DNA of 64,000 nt from Patescibacteria group bacterium (lineage in GTDB: Bacteria; Patescibacteriota; Patescibacteriia; UM-FILTER-42-10). The DNA is taken from the NCBI GenBank assembly GCA_041666485.1, contig JBAYGW010000002.1, forward strand, positions 7,711 through 71,710. The letters run 5' to 3'. A model generated the notes under the pieces. That model was not told the origin of the DNA and made no database searches. It was given only the letters and a program-made list of their open reading frames with translations. Position numbers and translations under genes: made by a program. Positions 26,957-50,957 of this stretch are shown here, piece after piece. Numbering within the stretch: position 1 is the first letter of the stretch; each line of letters begins with the position of its first letter.

Positions 26957-28351
26957 CTAAAATCTTAATTGCTTATTTAGATCCCCTACCGCTTCAAATT
27001 CTTCATCCGTCAGATATGAACGGCCGTCTATTTTCCTGCTGGTAATCACTTCCTGCACCGACTTCCCTTTGTTCATGCCTTCGTTACCTATATCAAGATA
27101 AATCTGGTAGATTTCCGATTTTTTCCACGCCTGAATCGCTTCCGATTTCTTGGTAAATGACTCCTCCTCCAACAAATCAACCTTCTCTTTTATCTTTTCT
27201 ATTGCCTGACGGGGGTTACCTCCTAGCCTCCTGAAATCAACCAGATTTAAACTCCTTATTTCTTCAATCGGTCCCATCAATCTTGGCGGTGTTTTAATAT
27301 CTACAATCTTCGGTCGGGAATCAAATTCCGGCATCGGCCGCTGTATCTTCGGCAAAATCGGAATTCTTCTTTCTACAACAGGGGTAACCGGGATAGCCGG
27401 CTGACTGGCTTTCGTCTTTATTTCATTTTCCAGTTCATTCTTATTTTGCTGATGCAAATTGAGCACTGCTTTTTTTATTTGCTCATTGGCTACCGCTTTT
27501 CTCATCCTCTCCTGCTGCTCTTTTTCTTTCTCCGCTTCCTGCATTTTCATCCTTTGCCGCATCTCTATCTTCTTAATCTCCCCCTCATCATGAAAACTCA
27601 TTGCTTTTTCCGCTGTTATCTTCACTATCTGTTCAACAACTTCGGGAGCAAGTTCCAAGCCACCGACTTTTTTTGAACGAACCAGCAATTCTCTCAGCTG
27701 AACGGATGTCCGAATATCACGTAGACGTGATGTGATAAGACTTTCAAATCTTTTTTGCATGAGCTCATCGGAAAAACTGACTCCAACCTGACCTGCAATT
27801 TCTTTAACAACCGCACCGTAATCAATCGCTCTGGTTACTGACGATATTTCTTTGTTATGTAATCTTTTTACCTCCTCCTCATCCTCAACATCAAAATAGA
27901 AACTGGCGTTTACACCTTTACCGGGAATCATCCTACTCGCCAGTCCTGGCTTCAATTGGGAAGCTGTAATCTGCTGGACGCCCTCTTGCTTTTCAGATGC
28001 GGGTGTAACCATTTCTTTGCTTACCGGTTCTTGCTTGGGAACTGTCTGGATAACGGGTGCGGTCGGGACGGGAGTATTTGGTGTTTTCTTTACTGACAAT
28101 TGTGCAACCGCCTTCTGGATGACGGAGGGATTTATCGCAGTCGGTTTCGGTACACGAGCAACATTTACCGGAGCAACAACCGTATTTTCTTCGCCTAATA
28201 ATTTAGCGCCATTAACATAACTGAACTGACCTTTTTGGTCCTTAATCAATATTTTAGCGCCTTTTAAAATTTCTTTTTCCTCGTTATCTTTTTTGCCACT
28301 TGCGACATTTACGGATATTGAGGGGTTACTTTTGTTTTTTTGATCCTCCAT
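26957..28351 (-). CDS. Hypothetical protein (464 aa) with a Lys/Glu-rich coiled-coil region.
   Basis: Complete ORF. It overlaps the upstream gene by 26 nt, which suggests translational coupling. No motif I recognise. Confidence 0.45.
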   Translation of the reverse strand: MEDQKNKSNPSISVNVASGKKDNEEKEILKGAKILIKDQKGQFSYVNGAKLLGEENTVVAPVNVARVPKPTAINPSVIQKAVAQLSVKKTPNTPVPTAPVIQTVPKQEPVSKEMVTPASEKQEGVQQITASQLKPGLASRMIPGKGVNASFYFDVEDEEEVKRLHNKEISSVTRAIDYGAVVKEIAGQVGVSFSDELMQKRFESLITSRLRDIRTSVQLRELLVRSKKVGGLELAPEVVEQIVKITAEKAMSFHDEGEIKKIEMRQRMKMQEAEKEKEQQERMRKAVANEQIKKAVLNLHQQNKNELENEIKTKASQPAIPVTPVVERRIPILPKIQRPMPEFDSRPKIVDIKTPPRLMGPIEEIRSLNLVDFRRLGGNPRQAIEKIKEKVDLLEEESFTKKSEAIQAWKKSEIYQIYLDIGNEGMNKGKSVQEVITSRKIDGRSYLTDEEFEAVGDLNKQLRF

Positions 28352-29300
28352 TATATTTCAGTGTTGTTATTGGTCTTGACTGCGTAATGTATATTTTATT
28401 TTTTTCCAGCGCCCACTCTATGTCCTGCGGATGCCGATAATGTTTTTCAATTTTCTCGCAGATTCCGGCTAATTGGATTATTTGTTTGCCCGTGAGTTTC
28501 TGCTTCTCCTGCATTATCTTTGGAACCTTCACTTTTTTTACTCCGCTGGTTCCGGCCTGAACAATCATTTCTTTTTGCTCGGAAATATTGATATCCAGGA
28601 TTGTTTTTTCCTTTTTATCAATAATGTACGTATCCGGCGTAATCTGCCCGGAAACGATCGCCTCCCCCTGGCCGTATCCCGCTTCAATCACCATTTGATC
28701 CCGGTCGTTTGTCACCGGATGAGCCGTAAAGGCAACTCCGGATATTTCAGAATTCACCATGCTCTGCACCACTACACCCACACTGACTTTGGTTTTGTGC
28801 AGTTTCTTTTCAAAACGGTAAAAAATAGCGCGCGGAGTGAATAGTGATGACCAGCATTTACGGACTGCTTCGGCTAGATTCTTCCTGGTAATGAACAAAT
28901 ATGTCTCTAACTCGCCCGCCCATGACGCGACAGAGGAATCTTCAGCTGTTGCAGAAGAACGGACAGCAACATATTTGGTTTTCAATTTATCAAAAGCCGC
29001 CAATATCTCTTTTTGTATATCCTCCGGAATTATGAAATCGTGGATTAAGTCCCGAATTGTGTTGGAAACACGGTCCACACTGTTTATATCATTCAACTTT
29101 ACTTTCTTTAACAGTGCGTCTATCTCCACATCCAGATCTGTTTCCTCTAAAAAACGCTCAAAAGTGCCGGAAAGTACTACAAACCCGGGTGGGACCGGCA
29201 TTTTTACCATTGTCATCTCCCCCAGTTGCGCGCCCTTTCCCCCAGCTTCTGCAACACTCTTTCTATTTAATTGCGAAAAAGTTTTGGTAAATTTTGCCAT
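28326..29300 (-). CDS. Stand-alone PPDK_N-type ATP-grasp (nucleotide-binding) domain protein, homologous to the N-terminal domain of PEP synthase, pyruvate-phosphate dikinase and rifampin phosphotransferase (324 aa).
   Basis: VAEAGGKGAQLGEM...GFVVLSGTFERF, VAVRSSATAEDSSVASWAGELETYL, and DIEWALEKNKIYITQSRPITT match PPDK_N motifs throughout. It has no phosphohistidine or PEP-binding domain. Confidence 0.8.
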   Translation of the reverse strand: MAKFTKTFSQLNRKSVAEAGGKGAQLGEMTMVKMPVPPGFVVLSGTFERFLEETDLDVEIDALLKKVKLNDINSVDRVSNTIRDLIHDFIIPEDIQKEILAAFDKLKTKYVAVRSSATAEDSSVASWAGELETYLFITRKNLAEAVRKCWSSLFTPRAIFYRFEKKLHKTKVSVGVVVQSMVNSEISGVAFTAHPVTNDRDQMVIEAGYGQGEAIVSGQITPDTYIIDKKEKTILDINISEQKEMIVQAGTSGVKKVKVPKIMQEKQKLTGKQIIQLAGICEKIEKHYRHPQDIEWALEKNKIYITQSRPITTLKYNGGSKKQK

Positions 29301-29383
29301 GAAAAATCTTTTATATTATAGCATAACTGATAATAATTCACAACATTACATACAGGCACAATCGCGCTTGCTTTGGCCATTGA

Positions 29384-29411
29384 CCCCGTTAGAGCAAATG
29401 CTCTAACGGGG
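29384..29411. other. Perfect hairpin with a 13-bp stem immediately upstream of the cassette promoter.
   Basis: CCCCGTTAGAGCA-aat-GCTCTAACGGGG. No flanking T-tract. Confidence 0.5.
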
Positions 29412-29440
29412 TTGACAAATTTGTAAAAAAGGTATATAAT
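29412..29440 (+). promoter_or_regulatory. Perfect consensus sigma70 promoter (TTGACA-N17-TATAAT) driving high-GC cassette 1.
   Basis: TTGACA at 29412-29417, exactly 17 nt of spacer, then TATAAT at 29435-29440. It is followed by a ~170-nt leader containing the hairpin GAGGA-gtaa-TCCTC (29531-29544), the palindrome CCACGTG-AA-CACGTGG (29560-29575), and the SD AAGGAG (29598-29603) placed 6 nt before the ATG. Confidence 0.6.
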
Positions 29441-29609
29441 CCCCGGTTAAAAGTACGCCGTTTTGCTTGATGATGTTTCCTTAAACAAATCGGCGTGCTT
29501 TTGCACATAGTTGCCCATTCAAAAACGATTGAGGAGTAATCCTCATAACAATACCTTCACCACGTGAACACGTGGCGAAACAGGAGTCCCCCCAGCCAAG
29601 GAGTTTGTG

Positions 29610-30272
29610 ATGGTACTAGTACAAGTTTCGCAGATCCTGGCCAGGATCCCCGATGGCACCACTCGCATCTCCCTGCTCGGCCGGCATTCGCTGTCCGTGC
29701 AGGACGGGCCGAACGAGACCCGCACGCTCAGCGCAGATGGTATTCAGCTCTGCAACGAGGTGAGTGGGTTCTACACCCAGCTCGTCCATGAGTTGGAGGT
29801 GCTCACTTCCTCCTCTGAGGCCGCGTTCTACTGCTCTGACATGGCACGCTCGTTCGCGACCATCCAGGAGATTTTCCATCCGGACAGCATCTACCAGGAC
29901 GACCGGCTCAACCTGCTGGCCAGCTTGAAGAAGATCGATGGCGGCGCCTGGTTCAAGGAACAGAAGGATGCCGGGTGTTCCGAGAGGGAGATCATCTCCA
30001 ACTTCATTGTCCTGACTGATCCCAGCGTCGGCGCCGACCAGCCGTTCGAGCTGAACGCGCGGAATTACCTGCACTGGGCCGCCGAACCGAGCGGACCCCG
30101 TCTGCGGGTCGCCTTCGCGCACGAGGTGGCCTGCACCATGGCCGCCTACCCTTACTTCTTCTTCGGGGAGCAGTGGCCCGGCCTCAAGGAGTGCGAGTCG
30201 TACATGTTCTGCATGAACGACTGGGGTCACATCCTGCGCATGATCAAGGTCACCCCTCCGGCTACCCAGTAG
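29610..30272 (+). CDS. Compositionally foreign (high-GC) ORF of unknown function, 220 aa, in cassette 1.
   Basis: The ATG at 29610 is preceded by a consensus SD. Codons are strongly GC3-biased and the ORF is about 60% GC against a host background of about 38%. I see no recognisable catalytic motif. Confidence 0.6.
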   Translation: MVLVQVSQILARIPDGTTRISLLGRHSLSVQDGPNETRTLSADGIQLCNEVSGFYTQLVHELEVLTSSSEAAFYCSDMARSFATIQEIFHPDSIYQDDRLNLLASLKKIDGGAWFKEQKDAGCSEREIISNFIVLTDPSVGADQPFELNARNYLHWAAEPSGPRLRVAFAHEVACTMAAYPYFFFGEQWPGLKECESYMFCMNDWGHILRMIKVTPPATQ

Positions 30273-30289
30273 CCAACCGTACCTTCTCA

Positions 30290-30362
30290 GTCGAGCACAA
30301 ACTCGACCCACCGTTCCCGAAAGGTTCCCATTCACTCTCATGAATGTTCGGAGCCTTTTTTC
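30290..30362 (+). terminator. Terminator-like region after cassette 1.
   Basis: Hairpin GTCGAG-cacaaa-CTCGAC (30290-30307), then GGAGCC followed by TTTTTTC (30351-30362). Confidence 0.3.
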
Positions 30363-30473
30363 TTTGCCGAAAATAATATTATCGCCGGCGGGGCGCAATT
30401 ATTTCCGCAACTTTAACTTGAATTTTCACAATAAAAAGGCTACTATTAATGACTGACCATTAACCATGAATAT

Positions 30474-31376
30474 ATGAGAGAATCAACACTAGCCCCTACA
30501 ACTCTTGACGGAATTGTTGAACAAGGAAAGGAAAAAGAAAGAGAATTGCCAAAAATGACCGTATTTTTATTGCGTCATGGAGAAAGTAATAATGACAAAA
30601 CAAATCCCAACCGAGGACTTACCGAGAGAGGTATGGAGCAGGTAACAGAAAGTATCAACCAGATATTGAATAGTTTATTGTTAGAAAGCAATCCGGAATT
30701 TGAAGAATGGGATAATGAAGAATCAAGAATAACCGCCGTTCAAAATGCCATCCAAAATATAGAATTCCAGCTGAAAGATTCCGGCACCACTAGAACATTG
30801 GAACAAGTTTGGCTGGAATATGAAATACTGGAACAATACGGCGTGCCGGCAGAACACATTTATCTGCCACAAAGCGCATTTGAATACAAAGATAAAGAAC
30901 CGAATGAAAAAGCGGGCCCCGGCATAGCTAAAAGGCTCAAAGGAGTACGGGGGCTGGATCAGAATCCGGAATATAGGACTAAAATCAAATCAAAGGAGTA
31001 CCAAGAACGTGTTGGTGCAACCGGAGACATGATGGCCTGGGCCGTCTCCCCCGATGAAGATGTTCCGGATAACGTAGAAAAAAGAAGTCATATGGAAGAA
31101 CGCTACGCATCTGATATTGCAAAACTTGATAGAGTAGTCGCCCATAAAATGGAAGACTATCCGAAACGGGTGGTAGCGATTGCCAACGCCCATGCATCCA
31201 TCGCCACAATTGCCGCCGCCAAAGAATCCGGAATTCCACTGGAAAAACTTATGGGAAAAATTGGGGAAGTGCCGGAAGCCCAGGGCTTGCGCTATGATTT
31301 TTATGAAGGCGACACGGAACATACAGCTAAACCTTTTGGCCCTGAGATGGAACAGGCTGTGGCGGAATTAAAATAA
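30474..31376 (+). CDS. Histidine phosphatase superfamily protein (phosphoglycerate-mutase or SixA-like).
   Basis: MTVFLLRHGESNNDKTNPNRGLTERG contains the RHGE catalytic motif. The true start may be the internal ATG at about 30555. Confidence 0.65.
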   Translation: MRESTLAPTTLDGIVEQGKEKERELPKMTVFLLRHGESNNDKTNPNRGLTERGMEQVTESINQILNSLLLESNPEFEEWDNEESRITAVQNAIQNIEFQLKDSGTTRTLEQVWLEYEILEQYGVPAEHIYLPQSAFEYKDKEPNEKAGPGIAKRLKGVRGLDQNPEYRTKIKSKEYQERVGATGDMMAWAVSPDEDVPDNVEKRSHMEERYASDIAKLDRVVAHKMEDYPKRVVAIANAHASIATIAAAKESGIPLEKLMGKIGEVPEAQGLRYDFYEGDTEHTAKPFGPEMEQAVAELK

Positions 31377-31385
31377 TAGAGACCT

Positions 31386-31448
31386 TAAAAAAACCGTCCC
31401 CCACTTCCGCCTCCGCCGATTGGCGAATGGCAGATGGGACGGTTTTTT
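31386..31448. terminator. Bidirectional rho-independent terminator between convergent genes.
   Basis: AAAAAAACCGTCCC...GGGACGGTTTTTT: an A-tract, a GC-rich stem and a T-tract, located between the gene ending at 31376 (+) and the gene ending at 31457 (-). Confidence 0.6.
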
Positions 31449-31456
31449 GATTTACA

Positions 31457-32965
31457 TTATTTAATCTTCAGTATTCCGGTATTACCATCCACTTCCACAA
31501 CCTGTCCGTCTTTGAGAATTTTGGTAGTCATACGCAGACCGATTATTCCCGGGATACCTGCCTCCCGAGCCAGAGTTGCCGGGTGAGAGGTAATTCCCGG
31601 CCCTCCATCACAGATCAGTGCCGAAGCTATAGAGAGCACCTGAGTAAACACCGGCGTAGCCTGCAGAGTACATATAATATCTCCCTTTTTCACTTTATGA
31701 AATGAATCCGGATTAATTACGATCTTCACCGGCCCTTTGGTAACACCCGGTGAAACAGCCATTCCTACTAACTCTTTTACGTTCTTGTCTACTTCCACAA
31801 ATTTTTTATAATAATGCTTCGCTTTTTCCCCTGTATACAGGCTCGTTCTGCCATTTTCCATAATAAACGCACACAGCTTTATTCTTTCATTAAGGGCGTT
31901 ACTCATATTTAAACCTTTGGTAAGCATCGGTCTGACTTCTGCTGTCCTCAAATGACGCGTCTGGCGCATAGAAAGCCCGCCACGCCGGGCTATTTCCATT
32001 AAGATCGGGTCATAATAATAAAGGGTTTGTGAGACGATACTTTTTCTTAATTCTTTGTAATAGATTCCTTCGCGCATAGTTTGAAATAAGCGCTGATGTT
32101 TTTTATCAATCTTTAATTTATCTTGAATCTCATTAATTTTTGTGCCAATCCTTTCCTCTTCTTTTAGCATCTTTTCTAATGCATTTTTCGGATTCCCCTT
32201 TAGATGCTTTTTGAAACGAATAATAAAATCTTCGTATGTTAATATCGGATCATCATAATCTCTAGTGATCCAAAAGAATTTTTTTTCATGATTCTTTATC
32301 AATCTCAACAGCTCCTTATCTTTTTGAATTAAGTTAATAGTATTTATTACGTTTCCTTTAAAATAATCCGCCCATTTTTTCCGCTTATTGATAATTTTAC
32401 ATATTTTTAAAGCGGCTAAAGTTTCCTGCCTGCTTACCATTGCTTTTGTTTCAGTAATAAGAGCATCTACATAATGCGCGGCTTTTTTGGAATCTGCTTC
32501 TTTGGTGGCAATATACTCTTGCAAATATTTGAACAAATAGTTTTCTATAGCTAGAATCGGAAAATAATGGGAATACACCTGTTTATAGCGCCTCTCGTAT
32601 TCCTCGTGCAATCCCGCCAGTCTACTATTACTTAGCAATCCAAGTTTCTTTAGACTGTTATTCTCCTTTAGAAATGCATAAAAGCTCTTGGCAAAAGCCC
32701 TCTGTATTTTACCAAGTTTAATAAACATATCCGGCTGTTGGAATGCTTTTTCCAATACATTCATCCCCACCCGTTCATGATCAGCCTTATCAAAATACAA
32801 ATACATATGGTTCTCTTCAAACATTTGTACTATTCTTTTATAGGTAACCCCGACCACATCCTTCAGTTCCTTTCCTATTGATTCCATAGAAAGGTAGTTT
32901 GGGAAAGGACTCATCCGTTGCCTTTGGGATATTTGAAACCATACGATTTTTTTATTTTTGATCAT
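31457..32965 (-). CDS. PEP-utilizing-enzyme phosphohistidine (swivel) domain protein, rifampin-phosphotransferase or PEP-synthase-like but lacking an ATP-grasp domain. Paralog 1 of 6 (502 aa).
   Basis: The C-terminus GDIICTLQATPVFTQVLSIASALICDGGPGITSHPATLAREAGIPGIIGL is the PEP-utilizers mobile-domain motif with its catalytic His. The N-terminal ~400 aa is a domain I cannot assign. Confidence 0.7.
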   Translation of the reverse strand: MIKNKKIVWFQISQRQRMSPFPNYLSMESIGKELKDVVGVTYKRIVQMFEENHMYLYFDKADHERVGMNVLEKAFQQPDMFIKLGKIQRAFAKSFYAFLKENNSLKKLGLLSNSRLAGLHEEYERRYKQVYSHYFPILAIENYLFKYLQEYIATKEADSKKAAHYVDALITETKAMVSRQETLAALKICKIINKRKKWADYFKGNVINTINLIQKDKELLRLIKNHEKKFFWITRDYDDPILTYEDFIIRFKKHLKGNPKNALEKMLKEEERIGTKINEIQDKLKIDKKHQRLFQTMREGIYYKELRKSIVSQTLYYYDPILMEIARRGGLSMRQTRHLRTAEVRPMLTKGLNMSNALNERIKLCAFIMENGRTSLYTGEKAKHYYKKFVEVDKNVKELVGMAVSPGVTKGPVKIVINPDSFHKVKKGDIICTLQATPVFTQVLSIASALICDGGPGITSHPATLAREAGIPGIIGLRMTTKILKDGQVVEVDGNTGILKIK

Positions 32966-33563
32966 GATCCAAATATATGTTTAGTTCTTTATTAAATTGA
33001 CTGAAACTTTTCACTAAGACAGTCTTCATCCCCAGCGCTTTCGCATCCACAAGGTTTGATTCCTGATCATCCGCATACACAATTTCCCTTGGAGTTACAT
33101 TGAAACGCTTCATAACCACCCGCAGCGTTTTTTTACTCGCCTTCGGCAGATTAAGCTCCCAGGTATTGATAATATTCTTGAATTCATTTCTGAGGCGGAA
33201 TTTTTTGACAATCGCATCAACAAATTGGGAACGCGTATTTTTGGTAAGAAGTAGCGTCACATACCCCCTCCTGTTTAAATCCCTATTTACTACCAGCACC
33301 CGGTTATCAATTTTCATGAGTTTGTAATGCACATCCCTTAACTGTTGCCAGGTTATCGGCAGATTAAAATATTCTACCGTTTTTTGCCACGCTTCTTTCT
33401 GTGATATCTTCCGGATTGCCGCCAGATTAAAATATTCTGAATACATTTTCTGCTGATATGTCTTCCAGTTACCGCCATAACGTTTTGCCAGTTCCTTAGA
33501 AGTATTCGGATATCCGGCATTCAGAATTAACCCATAGCAGTCAAATATTATTAGTTTAACCAT
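32952..33563 (-). CDS. HAD-superfamily hydrolase (haloacid-dehalogenase-like, with a DxYG-type motif I).
   Basis: N-terminus IIFDCYGLIL (compare FDxYGTL) and C-terminus IVYADDQESNLVDAKALGMKTVLV (motif IV). It overlaps the downstream dikinase-like gene by 14 nt. Confidence 0.5.
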   Translation of the reverse strand: MVKLIIFDCYGLILNAGYPNTSKELAKRYGGNWKTYQQKMYSEYFNLAAIRKISQKEAWQKTVEYFNLPITWQQLRDVHYKLMKIDNRVLVVNRDLNRRGYVTLLLTKNTRSQFVDAIVKKFRLRNEFKNIINTWELNLPKASKKTLRVVMKRFNVTPREIVYADDQESNLVDAKALGMKTVLVKSFSQFNKELNIYLDHDQK

Positions 33564-34036: not shown

Positions 34037-34048
34037 CTAATTAAATTT

Positions 34049-34687: not shown

Positions 34688-36436
34688 ATGGATAATTGGA
34701 ATCTTACAGTTGTTTTAATTTTTTCAGTTGCTATTACCGGGATAGTGATCAGTTTTTGCGTATATATTAGAAAATTGAAAGGAACGTTAAAAGCAGAAGG
34801 TGAAAAAAGAGAATCAGAAAATAACCGGCGCATGTATGAACTGTCCATTCTTAAAGAAATAGGAGAAAGAGCCGGTTATTCTTTAAATACCCAGAGAATT
34901 GCTGATATTATCACCGGATCATTAAAAGAACTGATTGATTACTCTACGACTTCCTATATTCTGGAAGATTCCCAAAAAAAAGAATTGCTTTTCAAGTGCG
35001 AAGTTGAAGAAAGTGTCAGCCCTAAATTTGTGGAAGATGTAAAAAGCAGGATGGTCGCGGCGCTGTCAATTTTGACAGACCAGAACTATCAGGAACGAAA
35101 GATTGAAGAAGTCGTCGCGGGGACTATTTTGGATGATGAAAACAATGAGCCTTTAAGCTCATTTTTCAATATTCCGCTGACAGTCGGCGATAAAGTCGTC
35201 GGCATTTTGAACGTATCCAGCACCAAGACCGGCCTGTACAAGGAAGATGAAATGACTATTCTGTATAAAATAACCGCGCAGGCATCCAATGCTGTTACCC
35301 GCCTGCAGGATGTACTGGATTCCGAACAGAGCAAACTCAATGCTATGGTAGTCAGCATGGCTGACGGAGTATTGATGATTGACATGGAAAACAGGGTCTA
35401 TGTGATTAATCCTAAAGTAAAAGAGCTTTTGGGGATTGAGAGTGAGGAAATTTCCATTTTTGATATTATTGAGGCATTTGAAGGCAAGGTGGATTTCAGA
35501 ACTAAGCTTGAAGAATGCGTTAAATTGAACCGCCAGGAAATTGTAGAAGAAACTTATCTTCAGCACCGTTATATTAGAATTTTGTTTTCGCCGGTAAAAG
35601 ATAAAAATGACGATACTTTGGGAGCAGTAATTATTTTACACGATATTACACACGATAAAGAACTGGAAAAAGTAAAAGAAGATTTTACCAGCATGATGGT
35701 ACATGATCTGCGATCTCCTCTGAATGGTATCCGGCTGATCGCTGAAATGTTGCAGGATAAGAAAATGCCCAAGGACCAGTTTTTGCAATCAGCTAAAATG
35801 ATTCACGAAAGCACTACGAATATTTTAGAGCTGGTAAATGATTTATTGGATGTCGCTAAATTAGAAGCCGGTAAATTCATTGTGGCCAAAGAAAAGGGCG
35901 ACCTGCAAGCGGTAATTGCCAGCAGGATTAATTTCTTTCAGGCTCTGGCGAATGAAAAAAATATAAAACTTGATTCATATTGGGAGCCCGACATTGAACA
36001 AATACCGTTTGATGAAAAAGAGATAGTTCAAGTGCTGAATAACTTACTGTCCAATGCAATCAAATTCACCGATAAAGATGGTAAGGTAACTGTGCAAACA
36101 CTACTTTTAAGAAAAGATGAGGACGTTAAAAATAAGGCCGATTCCAATAAGATAAAATGGTTTATTTCCAATACATCCCCCGCTCTGATGAAACGTAGTA
36201 GTGACCTGTTAATTTGTGCTGTAACTGATAATGGGAACGGTATTGCACAAGAAAAAATTAAGAGTTTGTTTAATAAATTTCAACAGGCGGAAAACGGTAA
36301 AAAGTCAGAAATTAAAGGAACGGGGCTGGGTTTGGTAATCGCCAAGGGGATAATTGAAGCACATGGCGGCGCGGTTGGTGTTGAGTCTGTGATTGGCAAG
36401 GGCAGCACATTTTATTTTACATTACCATTAGAATAA
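34688..36436 (+). CDS. Sensor histidine kinase (TM, GAF/PAS-like sensor, HisKA and HATPase_c domains).
   Basis: N-terminal TM segment. H-box MVHDLRSPLNGI, N-box LLSNAIKFT, and G-boxes TDNGNGIAQE and GTGLGLVIAKGIIEAHGG. Confidence 0.85.
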   Translation: MDNWNLTVVLIFSVAITGIVISFCVYIRKLKGTLKAEGEKRESENNRRMYELSILKEIGERAGYSLNTQRIADIITGSLKELIDYSTTSYILEDSQKKELLFKCEVEESVSPKFVEDVKSRMVAALSILTDQNYQERKIEEVVAGTILDDENNEPLSSFFNIPLTVGDKVVGILNVSSTKTGLYKEDEMTILYKITAQASNAVTRLQDVLDSEQSKLNAMVVSMADGVLMIDMENRVYVINPKVKELLGIESEEISIFDIIEAFEGKVDFRTKLEECVKLNRQEIVEETYLQHRYIRILFSPVKDKNDDTLGAVIILHDITHDKELEKVKEDFTSMMVHDLRSPLNGIRLIAEMLQDKKMPKDQFLQSAKMIHESTTNILELVNDLLDVAKLEAGKFIVAKEKGDLQAVIASRINFFQALANEKNIKLDSYWEPDIEQIPFDEKEIVQVLNNLLSNAIKFTDKDGKVTVQTLLLRKDEDVKNKADSNKIKWFISNTSPALMKRSSDLLICAVTDNGNGIAQEKIKSLFNKFQQAENGKKSEIKGTGLGLVIAKGIIEAHGGAVGVESVIGKGSTFYFTLPLE

Positions 36437-36451
36437 TTAAATAATACGAAC

Positions 36452-36820
36452 ATGGCAAAAAAAATATTAGTCATCGACGACGATGATGCGATACAACAAG
36501 TGATAAAATCAGCCCTCGTTTCTGAAGGCTATGAAGTAAGAATTGCCGATGACGGCAAAGAAGGTTTAAAAGTAGTAAAAGAATTCCAACCGGACTTGAT
36601 AATACTGGATATTATAATGCCGGTAATGGATGGTTTGGGATTTCTAAAAGAAAATAAAAATAGATCAATTCCTGTTATTATCCTAACCTCCCTGGGTAAG
36701 GATGATAATGAGCAGAAATTTATTGATCTGGGGGCCAGACACTTTCTACAGAAGAGCATTGTACATGTTGACGATATTAAACAAAAAATTTCTGATGTAT
36801 TAAAAGAAGAGAGTAAATAA
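36452..36820 (+). CDS. Single-domain response regulator (CheY-like receiver).
   Basis: KILVIDDDDAIQQVIKSAL...DLIILDIIMPVMDG...ILTS...K contains the receiver-domain acidic pocket and the conserved Lys. Confidence 0.85.
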   Translation: MAKKILVIDDDDAIQQVIKSALVSEGYEVRIADDGKEGLKVVKEFQPDLIILDIIMPVMDGLGFLKENKNRSIPVIILTSLGKDDNEQKFIDLGARHFLQKSIVHVDDIKQKISDVLKEESK

Positions 36821-43109: not shown

Positions 43110-43622
43110 CTAAAACCTTCCTCCGCATATTGTAGACCATGTTCCGCCCCATTCGTCAGGACATTCATTTATCTTGGGCTTTGTCTCTAATCTATACATG
43201 ATGAAATATTTCTGGGAAGCCGCTTCATCACTTGCCTCCCATCTATTATAAAGGTATATATAGTGCTGATTGGTTTCATTATCCAATATGTTTAAGGGGT
43301 CATTGGGTAATGTCGGCATATATTTTGGCACAAGCGAAGGAATCCAATTGCCTGGCTGAAAACCCGGAGCTGAATTACAAGCAGAAACTGCGGGCAAGTT
43401 ATTGCATAAATGATAATCAGGATACACTCCATAATCATGATAATAGAGCTCTAGGGCGTTTCGGATCGCGCTGATATCCGCCACCCTTTTAGCATCACGT
43501 GCTTCTGCTCGGGCATGTTGCATGGATACGAATGCAATTGAGGAAATAAGACCCATAATAGCAACCACTACTAAAAGTTCCAGCAATGTGAAGCCTCTTT
43601 GTCCTTTGAATTGATGTTTCAT
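43110..43622 (-). CDS. Type IV pilin or pseudopilin with a prepilin N-terminal cleavage and methylation motif.
   Basis: MKHQFKGQRG|FTLLELLVVVAIMGLISSIAFVSM is the classic class III signal peptide, with Gly at -1 and Glu at +5. Confidence 0.85.
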   Translation of the reverse strand: MKHQFKGQRGFTLLELLVVVAIMGLISSIAFVSMQHARAEARDAKRVADISAIRNALELYYHDYGVYPDYHLCNNLPAVSACNSAPGFQPGNWIPSLVPKYMPTLPNDPLNILDNETNQHYIYLYNRWEASDEAASQKYFIMYRLETKPKINECPDEWGGTWSTICGGRF

Positions 43623-43632
43623 ATGTTTTTTA

Positions 43633-45279
43633 TTATTGCGGCAAGAAGAATCTGCCCACCGCTATGTTTATACCTGATGTCATTTCATTCGGGAAAGCTA
43701 CCACTTCATAAAGCGGATATTCGCCCATCCCTTTCCAAATTTTGATCACTGCCCGGTCGCCTGATTGTACCGCAGTTACTATCTCATCTTTACCATTATA
43801 ATTAAAATCGCCTGTAGCCAAACTTACTCCTCCGCGGAATTCAGGATGATAGGCAAAAAAACCATTGTGATACAGGGTCATGGAGCCGTCGGGTAAACGC
43901 CGGAATATCCGGACGTGCGGACCACCAACCGCCACCGGCGCCGTGATTATTTCATCGCCGTCGTTACCCACCAGATCACCCGTCGCAATATTTACCCCTC
44001 CTCTGAAACTGGTGGGATAAGCCATGAATCCTAAAATATGCGGCCAAATTTTATTTCCTTCGTAATGAAAAATCCGGACATGCGGTCCGCCGGTCAATTT
44101 TCCCGGAACTGTAATAATGTCAGCATGTCCGTCACCATCCAAGTCACCGCTTGCCACTTCCCAGCTTCCTCTCAGCCACTCATTGTAGGCAAAAAAGTTT
44201 TCAATCGTCGGTACATACACGCCATCGCGCTTGCCAAATATCCTGATATTCGGCCCGCCGCCTGATGCAGGAGATACGATTATCTCGCTATTGCCTTTCT
44301 TGTCCACATCACCAATTGCCACTTTTACGCCGTTTCGGAATCCATCCTGATATACTGATATTTCATCAAGCAGATCACCTTTCCAGTTGAAAATACGTAC
44401 TCTCGGCTCATAACCGGCACCCGGGCCAACAACTATTTCATCAATACCGTCTGAATCAAGATCACCGGCGGCAACATTTACGCCACCACGAAATGACTGG
44501 GAATAGGCGAAAAATTGGGAGAGCAAATGTCCTTCTTTTGTAAAAATTCTTACCTGGGGTCCGCCGCCCTGGTTCGGAACAGCAACTAAATAACTCTCCT
44601 GAAGCTGTAAATCACCCCCGCCAACCGGTGGTTGCGAAGGATTATCGGGCGGGTTGTCGTCTACAGGGATTTCCGTTGGCGGACTAACCACAGTACATTC
44701 ATCGGTCAGGTACGGTATTTCTTCTTGTGTGCCGCAACTATTTAAATCACTGCAGGTTCTGGACTTTACTCCGTCAACACATTCTGACCAGGCGGAACAC
44801 GTCCAAGATTCCACACAGTCCGTCCTGTGTGTAGCAATATTTGAAAGCGCGGACCATTGACCTTCATTATCCGCGGTCTTGATTGCAAAATAATAAGTGG
44901 TGTTTGGCGCCAGACCCATAACTATAAATGTTTCTCTGGTGCCGGCGGATGAGGGAGTGAGCGGATCAACCACTTGTGTCGCGCTACCCCAATTGGAATC
45001 ATTAATCGCCTGTGTACTGTAACGAATATCATATTCAACTGCTGTGCCGGTAAAACCGTCATCACCAGGCGCTGTCCAGTTAAGTGTCACTGAATTTGCT
45101 GAGGTGGCGCTGAACCCAGCTTGTACTTCAGTTAAGTGCAGTTGACTCCCGTATGGATATAACAAGCTGTATACCAATCCGATCAGCGCTGAAAGACCGG
45201 CAATAACGGCAATTTCAATGCTTAACCTGACAAGGAGTATTGGTTTGTTCTTAATTATTGAATCTGTCTTCACTTGCAC
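43633..45279 (-). CDS. Membrane-anchored protein with a fibronectin type III-like domain and FG-GAP (integrin-alpha-type) beta-propeller repeats.
   Basis: N-terminal TM segment. Five or more repeats of the form GDLDSDGIDEIVVGPGAG...PRVRIF, GDVDKKGNSEIIV, GDLDGDGHADIITVPG...PHVRIF, GDLVGNDGDEIITAP and GDFNYNGKDEIVTA. Confidence 0.7.
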   Translation of the reverse strand: MQVKTDSIIKNKPILLVRLSIEIAVIAGLSALIGLVYSLLYPYGSQLHLTEVQAGFSATSANSVTLNWTAPGDDGFTGTAVEYDIRYSTQAINDSNWGSATQVVDPLTPSSAGTRETFIVMGLAPNTTYYFAIKTADNEGQWSALSNIATHRTDCVESWTCSAWSECVDGVKSRTCSDLNSCGTQEEIPYLTDECTVVSPPTEIPVDDNPPDNPSQPPVGGGDLQLQESYLVAVPNQGGGPQVRIFTKEGHLLSQFFAYSQSFRGGVNVAAGDLDSDGIDEIVVGPGAGYEPRVRIFNWKGDLLDEISVYQDGFRNGVKVAIGDVDKKGNSEIIVSPASGGGPNIRIFGKRDGVYVPTIENFFAYNEWLRGSWEVASGDLDGDGHADIITVPGKLTGGPHVRIFHYEGNKIWPHILGFMAYPTSFRGGVNIATGDLVGNDGDEIITAPVAVGGPHVRIFRRLPDGSMTLYHNGFFAYHPEFRGGVSLATGDFNYNGKDEIVTAVQSGDRAVIKIWKGMGEYPLYEVVAFPNEMTSGINIAVGRFFLPQ

Positions 45280-47826
45280 TTAATTAGCAGTTAAATTACT
45301 AATCATGCCCGGAGGAGTACTATCCACCGGCGGTAAGGGGTTGAGCAGTATCCTGCCGTCATACCAGTTTAACGTTACCGAGGTTGTTTCACCTCCCGGA
45401 TTTGCGGCTGGATCTTGTCCGCCATTTGTAGCATCAAGATAGCGATATGTGCCTCCAAGATCTACTGTTGAAGATCCTATATTATTGTTGAGTAATACAA
45501 TCCCGTGCTCAAAGTCCCTTCTATATACTCCGGTTTGAATTTGGACGTAATCAGTCACCGGCAGGCCTAAATAACCCCTTCCGGTGGCATAATCATCTGT
45601 TGGCTGTCCGGTATTAAAATCAACCCAATATTCATCAAACCAGGACTGTGATCTGTTCCCATCAGGGCTTTGCGAATTATAATAAATACCCGTCATTAGA
45701 CTGGCGGCAAGACCATATCTATGATACCGATAGTAAGACGTACTACCCAGAAGGTATGCATTTTCAAATAAATTGTCATTCAGACGGGGTGAAAGCGAAT
45801 GCTCCTCCCAATATTCAAATCCGCGCGTATTGGCCGGATCAAAATAATAAGTTAGCGTACTTGGTTGGAAGAACCTTTCCCACAAATTCCCATTATAATC
45901 AGCATGGTATTCAGCATTGCCATTACCGACTGTCAGCATGTCCTGACCTAAATGCGCCCTATTTTTTTGCATTTGAGCATGCATTCCTTCAATCCAAATT
46001 TGTGTTGCTTTAGCAAGATCCGCATTATCATTTAAATCTTCATCAATTCCGTCAAAATCAAAATCACAATACTGCTCGTAGATCCCCGGATTCTTTACAT
46101 AATCATATAAAAACCAAAAGGAGGATCCGGTTACATCCCACCAAATTCCATCAAAGTAATTCAGCCGGTCAAAAATATCTTTTTCCATGTGTTCCGCTGA
46201 AATATCCGTATACGGAGAAACAACGTTTAAATTATAAATCAAATTACTTGGGAAGCTGGGATTTACGCAATAAGTTCCCGGGTTTTCCGAACTCTGCAAC
46301 CGAAGACTGGGGTTCAAACGGTCATTAAAAGTCTTAAAAGCCACCCCGCTGTAATCCTGATACCCAATCGCATCTTTATACAAAAGAACTACTTCCTGAG
46401 GATTAGCTTCCTTGATTTGGCGGATAACATCAGGAACTAGTATTGAGGCCTTAGAAAAACTCACCAAGTCATATTTTCTTAGATAATCTACTTCGCTTAC
46501 AGATGGAGCATTGCTCCACCACAATTCCGAAATTTTTGGATAGGTCTGCGGAACATCCGGCAGAACCCGGAACTGGCGGAAAAAGCCGTAATCATCCGGA
46601 TCATCTGATGCCCCCTGGCATTTAATGGCAACAGGAAACTGATCAACGATATCATCAACTGTCTGTGTTATTGAATGCTCGGTTCCCACGGCACCAGTAG
46701 AATTTTCAAGTACACTGTATTGCTCCGGCTTCGTACCGTAACGGCAAGCCATGGGTGATGATGTTGTGAAGTTTATGGTAAATTGCTCCGTATTCGGTAT
46801 GAAATACCCGTCGGGACTGGTTACGGATATTTTAGAATCCAAAACAGTCGCGCTACTGTTTAATGCATCACCGCTACCCGTGACAGTCAGGCTGAATTCA
46901 TTACCAACCGCAAAATCACCACTATAATAGATATCGCTTTCGGAAAACGGCACGGATCTTTTATAATATTCATGTATCTGATCTGTTCCGAGCGGAGTAT
47001 TCAAAAATCTCATCTCGTCCACAATTACATCATCATTTCCGATAACCATATCCCCTGCCCCGGGAACGATAGACGGGAAATTTTCCGCCTCTGTGTAATC
47101 TCTCCTGGAAACCTGTTCGCCGTTATAATAATATTTAACGACTTTTTCGGAGGCAGACCAGGTGGCGGTCAGTAATATTGGCGTGTTAGTCGGCATCTCA
47201 ACACGATCATTTCCAGCCTGCGCAGAAAGTTCCCAGCCATCAGTCCCGTCATACATTGTAAATTTGAGTACATTTATTTCATGCACGTTCATCATGAATG
47301 AATCGCCCGTAGAATCATTGTGATACCTGAAAATATACGGACTCGCATCAAACGCCGGATCGCTGAGCGGTTTTTTCAGCGTTAACCAGATATCCATTGT
47401 TCCTTCGTTGAAATCAACATTATTATCAAGTGAATAATTTGCGCTACCGATCATTCCTTTTCCAAATTTTCCATTTTCATATGTTACAGAATCGGAAGAG
47501 ACAGGATTCTCGCCATTCACCGTTGTCTGAGTATCATCAAAATGAGCTAAAAAAGTTGTAGGTACTACGCCGTTTTCAGAAGTAACATCATTTACTGACC
47601 ATTCATAAAGTGAACCCTCAGCTGCATCAGATTGCGCAACTATTTCACTGCCAATATACGGCTGGATAATGTTTAGGTAGGAATCAGTCGCCTGGGTTTC
47701 CGGTGCTAACACACCACCTTTCCACAAATAAAAAACCGCCGATGAAACGGCAGCACTAAAAACAAAAATAACAACTACTTTAGTTATTATACTTCTGACT
47801 CTGAATGCGCTGATATCATTACGCAT
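45280..47826 (-). CDS. Large secreted or membrane-anchored hypothetical protein (848 aa).
   Basis: Complete ORF with an N-terminal TM segment VVVIFVFSAAVSSAVFYLW. It directly abuts the FG-GAP gene. No family I can name. Confidence 0.5.
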   Translation of the reverse strand: MRNDISAFRVRSIITKVVVIFVFSAAVSSAVFYLWKGGVLAPETQATDSYLNIIQPYIGSEIVAQSDAAEGSLYEWSVNDVTSENGVVPTTFLAHFDDTQTTVNGENPVSSDSVTYENGKFGKGMIGSANYSLDNNVDFNEGTMDIWLTLKKPLSDPAFDASPYIFRYHNDSTGDSFMMNVHEINVLKFTMYDGTDGWELSAQAGNDRVEMPTNTPILLTATWSASEKVVKYYYNGEQVSRRDYTEAENFPSIVPGAGDMVIGNDDVIVDEMRFLNTPLGTDQIHEYYKRSVPFSESDIYYSGDFAVGNEFSLTVTGSGDALNSSATVLDSKISVTSPDGYFIPNTEQFTINFTTSSPMACRYGTKPEQYSVLENSTGAVGTEHSITQTVDDIVDQFPVAIKCQGASDDPDDYGFFRQFRVLPDVPQTYPKISELWWSNAPSVSEVDYLRKYDLVSFSKASILVPDVIRQIKEANPQEVVLLYKDAIGYQDYSGVAFKTFNDRLNPSLRLQSSENPGTYCVNPSFPSNLIYNLNVVSPYTDISAEHMEKDIFDRLNYFDGIWWDVTGSSFWFLYDYVKNPGIYEQYCDFDFDGIDEDLNDNADLAKATQIWIEGMHAQMQKNRAHLGQDMLTVGNGNAEYHADYNGNLWERFFQPSTLTYYFDPANTRGFEYWEEHSLSPRLNDNLFENAYLLGSTSYYRYHRYGLAASLMTGIYYNSQSPDGNRSQSWFDEYWVDFNTGQPTDDYATGRGYLGLPVTDYVQIQTGVYRRDFEHGIVLLNNNIGSSTVDLGGTYRYLDATNGGQDPAANPGGETTSVTLNWYDGRILLNPLPPVDSTPPGMISNLTAN

Positions 47827-47918
47827 AGTTTTTTTATACTCAATTTACACATTTAATGATAACAGAAAAATCACATTTTGTCAATCAAGGACGCAACGCT
47901 TCAACATTCTTATTGAGT

Positions 47919-48596
47919 CTACATTTTATTACTTTTTATTTTTTCACAATCTCTTTTCCAATTCAAGAATTTCTTCCAAATTTTCTTATCCTTGTGCCAA
48001 TTATCCCGATCCGCCTCATAAGCTTGTTCTAATTCCCATACAACTTCACTGAAGAATCCTATCTTTCTAAAATAAAGGTCCCGGTCTTTTTTGTTAAAAA
48101 GCGCTTCAAATTTAATTTTACGCCTGCTAATCCACTCAGGATATTTTCCGCCAGTATCATCTAAAATAACAATAATTTTTTGAATGTTCAATTCCCCTCT
48201 GACATTTTCAATAAATATTTCCTTACTTGCTCCTGTAGCGATTACATCATCAACCAAAACTGCCCTGGCACCCTTGCTATATATTCCCTCTATTAATGAG
48301 TCTGTGGAATAACCCTTTGCTTTTTTTCTAATGTAAACCCAAGGGAGTTTTGTTTCCAACGCTATGGCAGCAGCCAGGCCAATCCCACCAGTTTCCCCTC
48401 CGGCAATTATTTCAATCTTTGGTTTGATTATTCTAATAATTTCGGCTAATTCTCGCGCTACCATTTTTAGAACAGCCGGATCAGATAGTGCCGCCTTAGG
48501 ATCCCAATAGATTGGAACAATCCGGTTCGCCTGGATCTTTACTCCGGGAGTATAAAAACGCTTCTGGGCTAATATTTTGAATACCTCATTTTTCAT
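47919..48596 (-). CDS. Type I phosphoribosyltransferase (OPRT-like) domain protein, paralog 1 of 5, with a W-rich C-terminal tail.
   Basis: PRPP-binding loop VLVDDVIATGAS. Tail NWHKDKKIWKKFLNWKR. Confidence 0.65.
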   Translation of the reverse strand: MKNEVFKILAQKRFYTPGVKIQANRIVPIYWDPKAALSDPAVLKMVARELAEIIRIIKPKIEIIAGGETGGIGLAAAIALETKLPWVYIRKKAKGYSTDSLIEGIYSKGARAVLVDDVIATGASKEIFIENVRGELNIQKIIVILDDTGGKYPEWISRRKIKFEALFNKKDRDLYFRKIGFFSEVVWELEQAYEADRDNWHKDKKIWKKFLNWKRDCEKIKSNKM

Positions 48597-49222
48597 TTTT
48601 TTACCCTTCCTCCCCAGTTAATTGGATCTTTAAGATATTGTCTAATCGCTAAAGTATCCTCAACATTAAAAATGCCGTGCTCAATACCAAAGTTGGCAAT
48701 CTCTTGAAAAGTAACCAGATAGTGAATCTTTATCCTATTAGCTTTCTCTATTTTCTTTACCAGTTCCTTTTTGACTATAGAAATTACTAAAACATCTTTT
48801 ATTTTTGCCTTGTTTTTTCTTAACACTTTGACAGCATAATTAATATTGCTCCCGGTCACCACCATATCATCAATCAACACCACTTTCTGACGAGGATTAA
48901 TGATTCCTTCAATTTGTTTTTTAGTACCATTCCTCTTCGGCTTTTTTCTTACATAAACCATTGGTTTGGCAAGTGCCTGAGCAAGAATACCAGCAAATGC
49001 AATACCCGCTGATTCATTTCCCGCAATTATATCATAATAACTTGGCAATAATTTTTTTAGTTGGTTAAAAACCGCTGATAATTCTTTTGGGTAAGATAAT
49101 AAATTTCTATGATCAAGATAAATAGGTTGATATAGCCCCGCTCCACCCAATAGCGGCTTCTTGGAATTACAATAAACATTCTGTGCCTTGTATAATGCTT
49201 TAATAATTTTTAGCTTGTTCAT
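48593..49222 (-). CDS. Type I phosphoribosyltransferase-domain protein, paralog 2.
   Basis: VVLIDDMVVTGSNI. It overlaps paralog 1 by 4 nt, and the upstream gene by 4 nt. Confidence 0.65.
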   Translation of the reverse strand: MNKLKIIKALYKAQNVYCNSKKPLLGGAGLYQPIYLDHRNLLSYPKELSAVFNQLKKLLPSYYDIIAGNESAGIAFAGILAQALAKPMVYVRKKPKRNGTKKQIEGIINPRQKVVLIDDMVVTGSNINYAVKVLRKNKAKIKDVLVISIVKKELVKKIEKANRIKIHYLVTFQEIANFGIEHGIFNVEDTLAIRQYLKDPINWGGRVKK

Positions 49223-50817
49223 AGCTTTTTGATTATCCCTCTTTCCGCATCAACCGATATCTTATCGCCATCTTTCAACAGTTTATCACAATCTGCTACA
49301 CCGACCACGCATGGTATTTTCATTTCTCTGGCTACAATCGCAGTGTGACAGGTCAGCCCGCCGGCTCCGCCAATCAACGCTGATGCCTTTTTCATGGCCG
49401 GCACTAAATTCGGGTTGGTGTTATGAGCAACCATAATATCGCCCTGCTTCATTTTTTTTATATCTTCTGGTATGTTAACTATTTTTACAATTCCTTTGAC
49501 TTTACCGGGATAAGCACAGGTCCCGGAAAGCTGTTTTTTGGCATAATTTGGCTTTTTCAGATTAATAGATTGCATAAACTGTACCGCCTGTTCTCCTGTC
49601 ATGACTTTATTTGCAAATCCCGTTTTTCCTTTTCGTTGCCAGTAATCAACAGCTTTCTTTAGCCTTTCATTCAGAATATGTGGATCAACCTTACCACCTC
49701 TCAGTACAGTAATTATTTCACGTGATTTTAAAGCCTGAACTTGACTTACCGATAGTCCAAATCTCTTTCCTACTTCTTTAAAAATATTTTCATAATAATA
49801 CATCGCATTGTACAGCGCATCTTTACGGAAACTCTTGATATAGACCATTTGCCGAGCCATTTTTAAGATATTTTTTTCATGCTTTGAAAATCCCATCTCA
49901 CTGGTAAGCCTTTTCTGCTCTTTGAATAAATCATTTCTATCATTTTTCTTTTGATTTAACATCGCTTGCGGATCTTTTCTTTCACGCAAAAATGCCTGCC
50001 AACGAACTAAATAATCTCCCAGAGGATAAGCTGGACCTTTGTATTGATAGGTAATCGGACTAAATTTATAATAATGCTGATTGATACTTCGCTGAATTTG
50101 TGGATCAATTCCTGATAAATTATTTATCAGGCTTTTCAAACTAGACTGGACAAAAACCTCCCTTAGCTTTCTTTTTTTACTAATCATTAATGCAATTTTT
50201 AGAAAGCTTGTTTCCTCCTGATCAAGCAAGCTGCGTTTAACCGGCGAAGTAAGGATGGAAAAAATCCTTGATGCGCTTTCTTGTATTTTTGCTTTGTTTA
50301 ATTGTTTTTGCACTATTTTCAAGATTGCCTTGGTCAACAGTTGTTCTCCGGCATCCACATGCCAACTTACGCTAGTTGCATATCCATGACTTTGCATGTG
50401 AACTTTGCGAATTTCTGCCATGAGTTCAGCAATTTGCAGATTGCTCATTTTTGATAGATTCATTCTTTTCACTCGGTTCATTATTCTGAAGAATTCTTGA
50501 TTTGCCTCCTCAACTTTTTTCATAATTCCCAAGGCCCATTCTGGTTTTTTTATCGCCTTATCTGCTAGATATCTGCACTGTGTATTAAATTCTTTTTGCA
50601 CATAAATCATTTGGGAGAATTCACCGTCAAAATATGTGAAATATTCTTTTTCAAAATTACCTGCCCCCTGTTTTGGATATACAGAAAAAAACGCCTCAGC
50701 CGGAATTTCCATCATAAAGATAGTGTTCTGGGGGATGCCCTCAACCGCTTCCCATATTTTTTTGCTGGTTGTATTAGGTTTTATTCTTTTCTTTTTCATA
50801 TTATTTGGTGCCCCCAT
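49219..50817 (-). CDS. Phosphohistidine swivel-domain (PEP-utilizers) protein, paralog 6.
   Basis: C-terminus GTCAYPGKVKGIVKIVNIPEDIKKMKQGDIMVAHNTNPNLVPAMKKASALIGGAGGLTCHTAIVAREMKIPCVVGV. The track ORF (to 50931) runs into the tRNA-Arg gene. I chose the internal ATG at about 50817 (MGAPNNMKKK...). An alternative start is the ATG at 50799. Confidence 0.7.
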   Translation of the reverse strand: MGAPNNMKKKRIKPNTTSKKIWEAVEGIPQNTIFMMEIPAEAFFSVYPKQGAGNFEKEYFTYFDGEFSQMIYVQKEFNTQCRYLADKAIKKPEWALGIMKKVEEANQEFFRIMNRVKRMNLSKMSNLQIAELMAEIRKVHMQSHGYATSVSWHVDAGEQLLTKAILKIVQKQLNKAKIQESASRIFSILTSPVKRSLLDQEETSFLKIALMISKKRKLREVFVQSSLKSLINNLSGIDPQIQRSINQHYYKFSPITYQYKGPAYPLGDYLVRWQAFLRERKDPQAMLNQKKNDRNDLFKEQKRLTSEMGFSKHEKNILKMARQMVYIKSFRKDALYNAMYYYENIFKEVGKRFGLSVSQVQALKSREIITVLRGGKVDPHILNERLKKAVDYWQRKGKTGFANKVMTGEQAVQFMQSINLKKPNYAKKQLSGTCAYPGKVKGIVKIVNIPEDIKKMKQGDIMVAHNTNPNLVPAMKKASALIGGAGGLTCHTAIVAREMKIPCVVGVADCDKLLKDGDKISVDAERGIIKKL

Positions 50818-50880
50818 GAGGAATCCCCGCCAGAGGCGGGTGCGCCTCGGGCGCAGAACCTTTAACTTAATACTCCAGAT

Positions 50881-50957
50881 TGGTGTGCCCGACAGGACTT
50901 GAACCTGTGGCCTTGAGATCCGGAATCTCACGCTCTATCCAACTGAGCTACGGGCAC
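50881..50957 (-). tRNA. tRNA-Arg (anticodon CCG).
   Basis: The reverse complement folds as GTGCCCG/CGGGCAC acceptor, GCTC-AGTTGGATA-GAGC, anticodon stem TGAGA/TCTCA with loop TTCCGGA, T-arm ACAGG-TTCAAGT-CCTGT, discriminator A, and CCA. Confidence 0.8.

Follow-up and report, generated by a model that had tools for sequence, protein, structure and literature searches.

A probable RPH-type two-component dikinase in which one ATP-grasp subunit is shared by six partner proteins in a Patescibacteria genome

What charges six proteins that each end in a phosphohistidine swivel domain when a single ATP-grasp gene lies in their neighborhood, and what do such proteins phosphorylate? The question is raised by a stretch of 64,000 nucleotides, referred to as the window, from a Patescibacteria group bacterium (assembly GCA_041666485.1, contig JBAYGW010000002.1, positions 7,711 to 71,710). 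The genes concerned all lie on the minus strand and encode a stand-alone ATP-grasp (PPDK_N) subunit of 324 aa (28326-29300) and six swivel proteins, numbered here as paralogs 1 (31457-32965), 2 (36869-38383), 3 (38402-39880), 4 (39870-41348), 5 (41403-43028), and 6 (49219-50817). The region probably encodes a hub-and-spoke small-molecule dikinase of the two-component type related to rifampin phosphotransferase (RPH), in which the one ATP-grasp subunit is shared by the six partners. This one-to-many layout is conserved across a large part of Patescibacteria and appears to be undescribed in the literature searched.

The domain content of the seven proteins agrees with a preliminary description of the locus made from the letters of the DNA. 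All six paralogs carry the PEP-utilizers domain (PF00391) at the extreme C-terminus as their sole Pfam domain, with E values from 1.5e-14 in paralog 1 (residues 426-497, the most divergent swivel of the six) to 2.9e-26 in paralog 5; paralogs 2, 4, and 6 score 5.3e-25, 2e-25, and 9.5e-25. The phosphocarrier histidine is invariant in the six-way alignment and in an alignment of 48 sequences. The swivel motif as earlier written fits five of the paralogs, while paralog 1 departs from it by a one-residue insertion (GGPGITSHPATLARE). Pfam detects neither an ATP-grasp domain nor the PEP/pyruvate TIM barrel (PF02896) in the six proteins, as had been claimed; the TIM barrel is likewise absent from the ATP-grasp protein and from every other scanned open reading frame (ORF) of the window, and none of these other ORFs has an ATP-grasp domain. 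A tblastn search of the 64-kb window returned no additional ATP-grasp or swivel copies.

The ATP-grasp domain is thus single and separately encoded, the PPDK_N match being restricted to 28326-29300 (E 9e-101). It extends from residue 18 to 317 of the protein and covers positions 3-315 of the 328-position model, with no other Pfam domain. The protein aligns end to end with RPH-Lm's ATP-grasp domain (4-314 vs 4-316, E 2e-60); K22, R117, and T136 of RPH-Lm are conserved in it as K22, R114, and T133. It also aligns (E 1e-50) with 9goj_A, a stand-alone chain of 387 residues deposited under the name 'Phosphoenolpyruvate synthase'. Among the best 120 database homologues, identity is 64-100% and length 308-350 aa; judged from these alignments, the stand-alone protein (~312-325 aa) is strongly conserved in Patescibacteria. 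NCBIfam models of PEP synthase and RPH give it 329 and 284 bits, respectively, both below cutoff.

The ~400 residues that precede the swivel had been described as an unknown domain, a view that the structural comparison replaces. Paralog 3, modeled on the 48-sequence alignment (pLDDT 93.9, pTM 0.90), returned RPH-Lm entries as its six best Foldseek matches (E 2e-13 to 5e-11), four of them at TMq 0.51-0.57 and two entries of the G527Y mutant at 0.34-0.36. In the matches that rank next, TMq falls to ~0.2, and strong matches other than RPH are confined to the ~100-residue swivel. At the profile level, the family aligns to residues 651-866 of RPH, ~115 residues past the swivel, and several NCBIfam RPH-like models reach equally far upstream; in paralog 1, RIF_Ptrans_rph aligns residues 265-501 to 625-863. 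The predicted model and the profile alignment therefore assign the N-terminal region an RPH-type substrate-domain fold, and not that of a divergent ATP-grasp domain or TIM barrel.

Two residues of this domain, a lysine and an arginine (K290 and R293 in paralog 3), are invariant in the six paralogs. They fall on the R666-E667...K670 segment of RPH-Lm, at positions 666 and 669 with a register uncertain by one residue. In mutagenesis, Arg666 and Glu667 of RPH-Lm proved indispensable to the second phosphotransfer; Lys670 belongs to the same hydrogen-bond network (PMC4844700). The equivalent of Glu667 is not conserved in the six paralogs. A profile of the substrate domain by itself matches 4,475 clusters at 50% identity with E <= 1e-3, at least 2,781 of them with E <= 1e-10, and most of these clusters are 480-530 aa in length, which is the split form. 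A PPDK_N protein accompanied by substrate-domain/swivel proteins, with no TIM barrel, identifies the two parts of an RPH-type dikinase.

A split, fan-out dikinase had been put forward as a design not yet described. The split half of that claim does not hold, as the two-component RPH homologues HpeHI of Rhodococcus, CreHI of Corynebacterium, and PpsAB of Thauera/Aromatoleum, already characterised, consist of a separate ATP-grasp subunit and a subunit with an RPH-type substrate domain and swivel (PMC12167813), the same division as in the window. In that family, a histidine mutant of HpeH is inactive, and HpeH alone transfers phosphate between product and substrate (PMC12167813). The catalytic histidine is kept here, and by analogy the expected reaction would be ATP + X-OH + H2O -> AMP + Pi + X-P. 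The one-to-many half of the claim stands, in that no such layout was found in the literature searched. HpeHI, CreHI, and PpsAB are 1:1 gene pairs in the aromatic-catabolism operons of aromatic degraders, whereas here one ATP-grasp gene has six partners (up to 7-9 in relatives) in an ultra-small symbiont. HpeH is a protein of 71 kDa; the partners here have ~490-540 aa. No account of this system in Patescibacteria came up in the literature searches, and a mention of PPDK_N in ProFaNA proved unrelated to it.

Among single-chain relatives, RPH-Lm (PDB 5FBS/5FBT/5FBU, 5HV1) is one chain of 867 residues, whereas here the ATP-grasp domain has its own gene; identity to the paralogs in the substrate domain is ~14%, and the paralogs reach 52-70 bits with RIF_Ptrans_rph vs a cutoff of 999. 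PEP synthase and PPDK have homologous ATP-grasp and swivel domains and, as far as this homology tells, the same dikinase chemistry. In sequence, the swivel most resembles the PEP synthase one (E 8e-26 to 8a8e, and E 3.6e-45 when the family profile is used). In contrast to the present proteins, which are split, lack the TIM barrel, and end in the swivel, these enzymes are encoded by a single gene with a TIM barrel and a central swivel; their NCBIfam models give the paralogs 77-128 bits vs cutoffs of 598-740. Scores so far below the curated cutoffs mean that the proteins are neither RPH nor PEP synthase. The prodigiosin-condensing enzymes PigC and RedH are also members of this RPH-like superfamily, and their ATP-grasp domain is N-terminal and their swivel C-terminal; they differ in being single-chain enzymes in which phosphorylation activates the substrate for condensation, all scores with their models are far below cutoffs, and no pigment genes are present. 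The system is thus unlike the characterised dikinases in its ratio of one ATP-grasp gene to many partners, its own sequence clade, and its genomic setting.

The layout was followed across 80 loci from 80 different species-representative Patescibacteria assemblies, annotated with ORF calls and profiles made for this analysis and including Kerfeld-, Falkow-, Buchanan-, Doudna-, Komeili-, and Magasanikibacteria. Swivel paralogs lie near the ATP-grasp gene in 60 of the 80 loci and directly adjacent to it (within 300 nt) in 35, and all 176 paralogs are co-directional with it. Where both flanks extend for at least 9 kb (41 loci), the median is three paralogs per single ATP-grasp gene, with a range of 0-7; a second ATP-grasp-like ORF occurs in only two of the 80 loci. 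On other contigs, the ATP-grasp gene is followed by three paralogs (L006) or by seven (L074, which has no type IV secretion genes), and L001 has an array of nine paralogs with no ATP-grasp gene within 21 kb. The two parts are also found naturally fused in either order: ATP-grasp, substrate domain, swivel in protein P0058, and substrate domain, swivel, ATP-grasp in P0039.

Other database and locus proteins extend this range of architectures. The ORFs P0241 (1500 aa), P0242 (2309 aa), P0019, P0053, and P0055 hold two to four complete substrate-domain-plus-swivel units and are either fusions of tandem paralogs or read-through gene calls. Another homologue, P0015, is 53% identical to paralog 3 and is labeled as Candidatus Diapherotrites archaeon (DPANN). 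On this resemblance, the swivel family may be shared by both ultra-small symbiont radiations, or the bin of P0015 may be contaminated.

The N-terminal regions of the six paralogs are homologous to one another yet very divergent, with 17-22% identity between substrate domains and 39-67% between swivel domains. Orthologues of paralog 1 are 91% identical in L008 and 59% in L005 and L011, and that of paralog 2 is 86% identical in L008. Paralog 5 is 71% identical to the sole paralog at the syntenic site of L003, a closely related genome with one paralog where the window has four in tandem; its orthogroup, the most widely conserved, counts 24 members at 45% identity or more, one in each of 24 loci. 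Paralog 6 has a 41% relative in L032 that also adjoins a phosphoribosyltransferase (PRTase) gene, and paralog 4 has no close orthologue, its best match in the sampled loci being 38%. Three of the six are represented in distant genomes by orthologues of 38-59% identity, and the others are sporadic; across the sample, the 176 paralogs form 74 groups at 40% identity. Low substrate-domain identity, together with distant orthologues of three members, indicates that the paralogs are ancient, and recent tandem duplication was rejected on these grounds as the origin of the six copies.

Taken from the characterised homologues, the mechanism would run as follows. The 324-aa ATP-grasp protein would bind ATP and move its beta-phosphate to the swivel histidine of a partner, with the gamma-phosphate released as Pi and AMP as the other product. 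The phosphorylated swivel would then swing back to its own RPH-type substrate domain and phosphorylate a hydroxyl (or enol) of the bound small molecule, at a site marked by the invariant lysine and arginine. One ATP-grasp subunit would serve all partners and, as the six partners have divergent substrate domains, a single ATP-loading module would supply several substrate specificities. Phosphatases would act alongside: the HAD and histidine-phosphatase-like enzymes of the arrays would probably hydrolyse phosphorylated products or reset the phosphohistidine. As to the acceptors, the PRTase/HAD context weakly hints at nucleotide or phospho-metabolite salvage, and the relationship to RPH hints at xenobiotics.

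A shared subunit fits the gene ratio, the arrays with no ATP-grasp gene nearby, and the swivel's much stronger conservation compared with the substrate domain. The last of these is a weak argument for a shared hub, since the swivel is conserved in all dikinases. Several observations weigh against the shared-subunit dikinase. In the window, the ATP-grasp gene adjoins no paralog, the nearest lying 2.1 kb off with two opposite-strand genes between; it overlaps a type IV secretion gene by 26 nt and is translationally coupled to that gene instead. In six of the 41 fully flanked loci, no paralog lies within 9-10 kb. The count of one ATP-grasp gene applies to the 64-kb window, and a second may exist elsewhere in the genome. 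The swivel keeps the PEP-synthase-type threonine before the Cys/Ser-His pair, whereas HpeH and the homologues examined have methionine (PMC12167813). Sequence similarity to the PpsA/HpeH family does not extend past the swivel: matches of PRK08296-type NCBIfam models cover no more than the last 100-125 residues, with 52-100 bits vs cutoffs of 578-730, which places the six proteins outside the sequence clade of PpsA, CreH, and HpeH, themselves ~45% identical in pairwise comparison. A model of the P0058 fusion built on a mixed alignment was poor (pLDDT 64, pTM 0.48) and was not used. The domain identities, folds, catalytic residues, gene linkage, and fusions are observed, whereas the phosphotransfer, the sharing of the hub by all six partners, and the part played by the phosphatases are inferred.

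The other neighbors of the arrays, clustered across the 80 loci, bear on what the dikinase might act upon. The most recurrent are two kinds of phosphatase-type protein. Genes of HAD hydrolases lie beside swivel paralogs in 13 of the 80 loci, several divergent families with an RH(G/S/D/E) motif after an initial beta-strand occur in 28, and one or the other kind is present in 32. In the window, the HAD-family hydrolase (32952-33563, minus strand; Pfam HAD_2, E 2.8e-11) lies upstream of paralog 1 and is joined to it by a 14-nt overlap. Two plus-strand ORFs with the RHG-type motif lie between the ATP-grasp gene and paralog 1. The first encodes 221 aa with an LLGRHS motif (29607-30272) and the second 300 aa with LLRHGES (30474-31376). 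The second is convergent to paralog 1 and holds the same position in L005, L008, L009, and L011; L005 and L011 keep the HAD gene, paralog 1, and the convergent RHG-motif gene together as a unit, while in L008 and L009 the paralog is likewise followed by the RHG-motif gene, with no HAD gene detected.

Assignment of the RHG-motif families is provisional. They score 12.7-19.6 bits with Pfam His_Phos_1, below the 21.7-bit cutoff, and PDB matches to their profiles are nearly all SixA/PGM/PhoE/CobC chains at weak significance (E 3e-4 or weaker). In an alignment of 15 sequences that includes the product of 29607-30272, residues R8, H9, R52, and H148 are invariant; that ORF has no Pfam match of its own, and its family profile matches SixA and PGM-family chains with SixA-like chains at the top. 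The product of 30474-31376 has only faint His_Phos_1/SixA matches, and its profile (A6) finds almost nothing other than PGM/PhoE/CobC/SixA chains (best E 3e-4). Neither protein has a Pfam or NCBIfam match above threshold, and BLASTP detects no similarity between the two. Motif conservation and the profile searches suggest that both are probably members of the histidine phosphatase superfamily, the 300-aa protein a divergent one.

Five orotate-PRTase-like paralogs, 25-36% identical to one another, flank paralog 6, two of them downstream (47919-49222) and three upstream (50963-53218), all on the minus strand. The downstream pair matches Pfam Pribosyltran; the five match NCBIfam OPRT models below cutoffs, and none of them reaches any NCBIfam cutoff. 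PRTase neighbors of swivel arrays recur in three other loci (L010, L017, and L032), and an expansion to five is odd in a reduced genome. Defense-system models of PADLOC-DB match none of the seven dikinase proteins, on which ground an anti-phage role was set aside; their single match is a weak one, of PRTase_III-A to one PRTase neighbor.

These neighbors also bear on an explanation that shares the same chemistry, namely that the region is an array of RPH-like kinases that inactivate xenobiotics or antibiotics, each directed at a different toxic compound derived from the host or from competitors. Of the solved structures, only that of an antibiotic kinase shares the overall fold, and a survey of the resistome of the Candidate Phyla Radiation already counts rph-like genes (PMC8651080). 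Paralog content differs between close relatives, as between L003 and the window, and the many groups at 40% identity point the same way. In contrast, the 24-locus orthogroup of paralog 5 is stable, and the fixed pairing with HAD, histidine-phosphatase-like, and PRTase genes looks more metabolic. A phosphatase beside an inactivating kinase would reverse the inactivation, and the six proteins score far below the NCBIfam cutoff for RPH. An array of this kind is rather unlikely.

The position of the ATP-grasp gene invites a second explanation. As earlier noted, the gene heads a minus-strand VirB4 cluster (23875-28351, identified with Pfam) in which a 464-aa unknown protein, PrgI, a TraC-like protein, and VirB4 follow. 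The same string, with an unknown protein of 430-630 aa, comes after the ATP-grasp gene in L003, L005, and L007 and in 27 of 70 eligible loci, often with RadA next, and the spacing between gene and string in relatives runs from a 13-nt overlap to a gap of ~180 nt. This linkage is conserved synteny, which may or may not be functional. It could be that the ATP-grasp protein serves type IV secretion and that the swivel proteins form a phosphorelay charged by PEP, an acyl phosphate, or a phosphorylated product, with the histidine-phosphatase-like proteins resetting them. Besides the linkage and the 26-nt overlap, the ability of HpeH alone to transfer phosphate between product and substrate is in keeping with such a relay, as are the L001 array and the SixA-like chains that top one profile search, SixA-type enzymes being phosphohistidine phosphatases. 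Against it stand the fusions in both domain orders, the strict co-directionality, the paralogs that directly adjoin the ATP-grasp gene in 35 of 80 loci, some of which, such as L074, are devoid of type IV secretion genes, and the arrays in which no alternative phosphodonor domain is found. A survey of type IV secretion in Patescibacteria makes no mention of a dikinase or ATP-grasp gene and is silent on PPDK_N. To our knowledge, the PPDK_N domain has no role in type IV secretion, and a relay independent of the ATP-grasp protein is distinctly improbable.

A fragmented conventional PEP synthase or PPDK of central carbon metabolism, which the database names imply, is scarcely credible: PEP synthase models are the best NCBIfam matches of both parts, GGxT(S/C)H fits the PEP synthase consensus, and JGI calls some homologues 'pyruvate, water dikinase', but the scores are far under the PEP synthase cutoffs, six divergent copies make no sense for one reaction, and the reading is rejected because the TIM barrel is missing from the scanned window proteins, as it is from the recurrent neighbors of the 80 loci, and the residues ahead of the swivel adopt the fold of the RPH substrate domain.

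The two-component dikinase with a shared ATP-grasp subunit is therefore retained, with some gene boundaries corrected. Two database proteins, P0001 and P0121, are 100% identical to window proteins. The former (488 aa), identical to paralog 3, begins at an ATG at 39868, four codons later than the listed start. An 11-nt overlap between paralogs at 39870-39880 had been reported; it needs a TTG start, and the likely start at 39868 leaves none. The 4-nt overlap at 49219-49222 exists but joins paralog 6 to a PRTase gene and not two paralogs. For paralog 6 itself, the start at 50817 is upheld: the longer ORF 49219-50931 crosses a tRNA-Arg(CCG) gene (50881-50957, minus strand, found with ARAGORN) that lies within the PRTase/swivel gene string. 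An ORF of 260 aa at 29616-30398 on the minus strand is antisense to the more plausible 29607-30272; Arg, Gly, Leu, and Val abound in its translation, which matches no family, and the ORF is probably spurious.

The remaining genes around the paralogs are varied. A GAF-PAS histidine kinase and a single-domain response regulator lie between paralogs 1 and 2 (34688-36820, plus strand); L003 has the same pair, with a kinase 87% identical, and one swivel homologue, P0074, has an N-terminal receiver domain. Between the tandem paralogs and the PRTase block, and in one gene string with them, are minus-strand genes for a type IV pilin-like (N_methyl) protein, an fn3/FG-GAP protein, and a GHL15-like protein of 848 aa (43110-47826), an order kept in L003. 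Just upstream of the PRTase block, 54332-55378 (minus strand) encodes an APH-fold kinase-like protein with a weak methylthioribose-kinase match (E 5e-14, well below cutoff), a further candidate small-molecule kinase. Two very large proteins of 1180 and 1166 aa, one with a PA14 domain, are encoded at 56869-63928 (minus strand) and may be surface or adhesion proteins.

In its widest form, which is speculative and rather doubtful, the proposal is that Patescibacteria and apparently some DPANN possess a platform for combinatorial phosphorylation, in which as many as ~10 substrate-specific phosphocarrier enzymes would be charged by one highly conserved ATP-loading subunit. Dedicated HAD and histidine-phosphatase partners would go with these enzymes, often in co-transcription with type IV secretion genes, and the whole would scavenge or trap host-derived metabolites as a functional analogue of the phosphotransferase system (PTS) in organisms without one. 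If true, the platform would be a major element, overlooked so far, in the way ultra-small symbionts obtain or reuse nucleotides and other building blocks. The seven genes fill ~9 kb, in a genome whose size is probably close to 1 Mb. In databases, such proteins carry only the labels 'PEP-utilizing enzyme' or 'pyruvate, water dikinase', and this naming can introduce a spurious PEP synthase when the metabolism of Patescibacteria is reconstructed. Recognition of the proteins as RPH-type substrate modules extends the newly defined class of two-component dikinases well past aromatic catabolism and presents a natural example of a modular kinase, in which exchangeable subunits set the specificity and a single subunit activates. 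The recurring phosphatases, and the tie to type IV secretion, may indicate how these symbionts process host-derived material.

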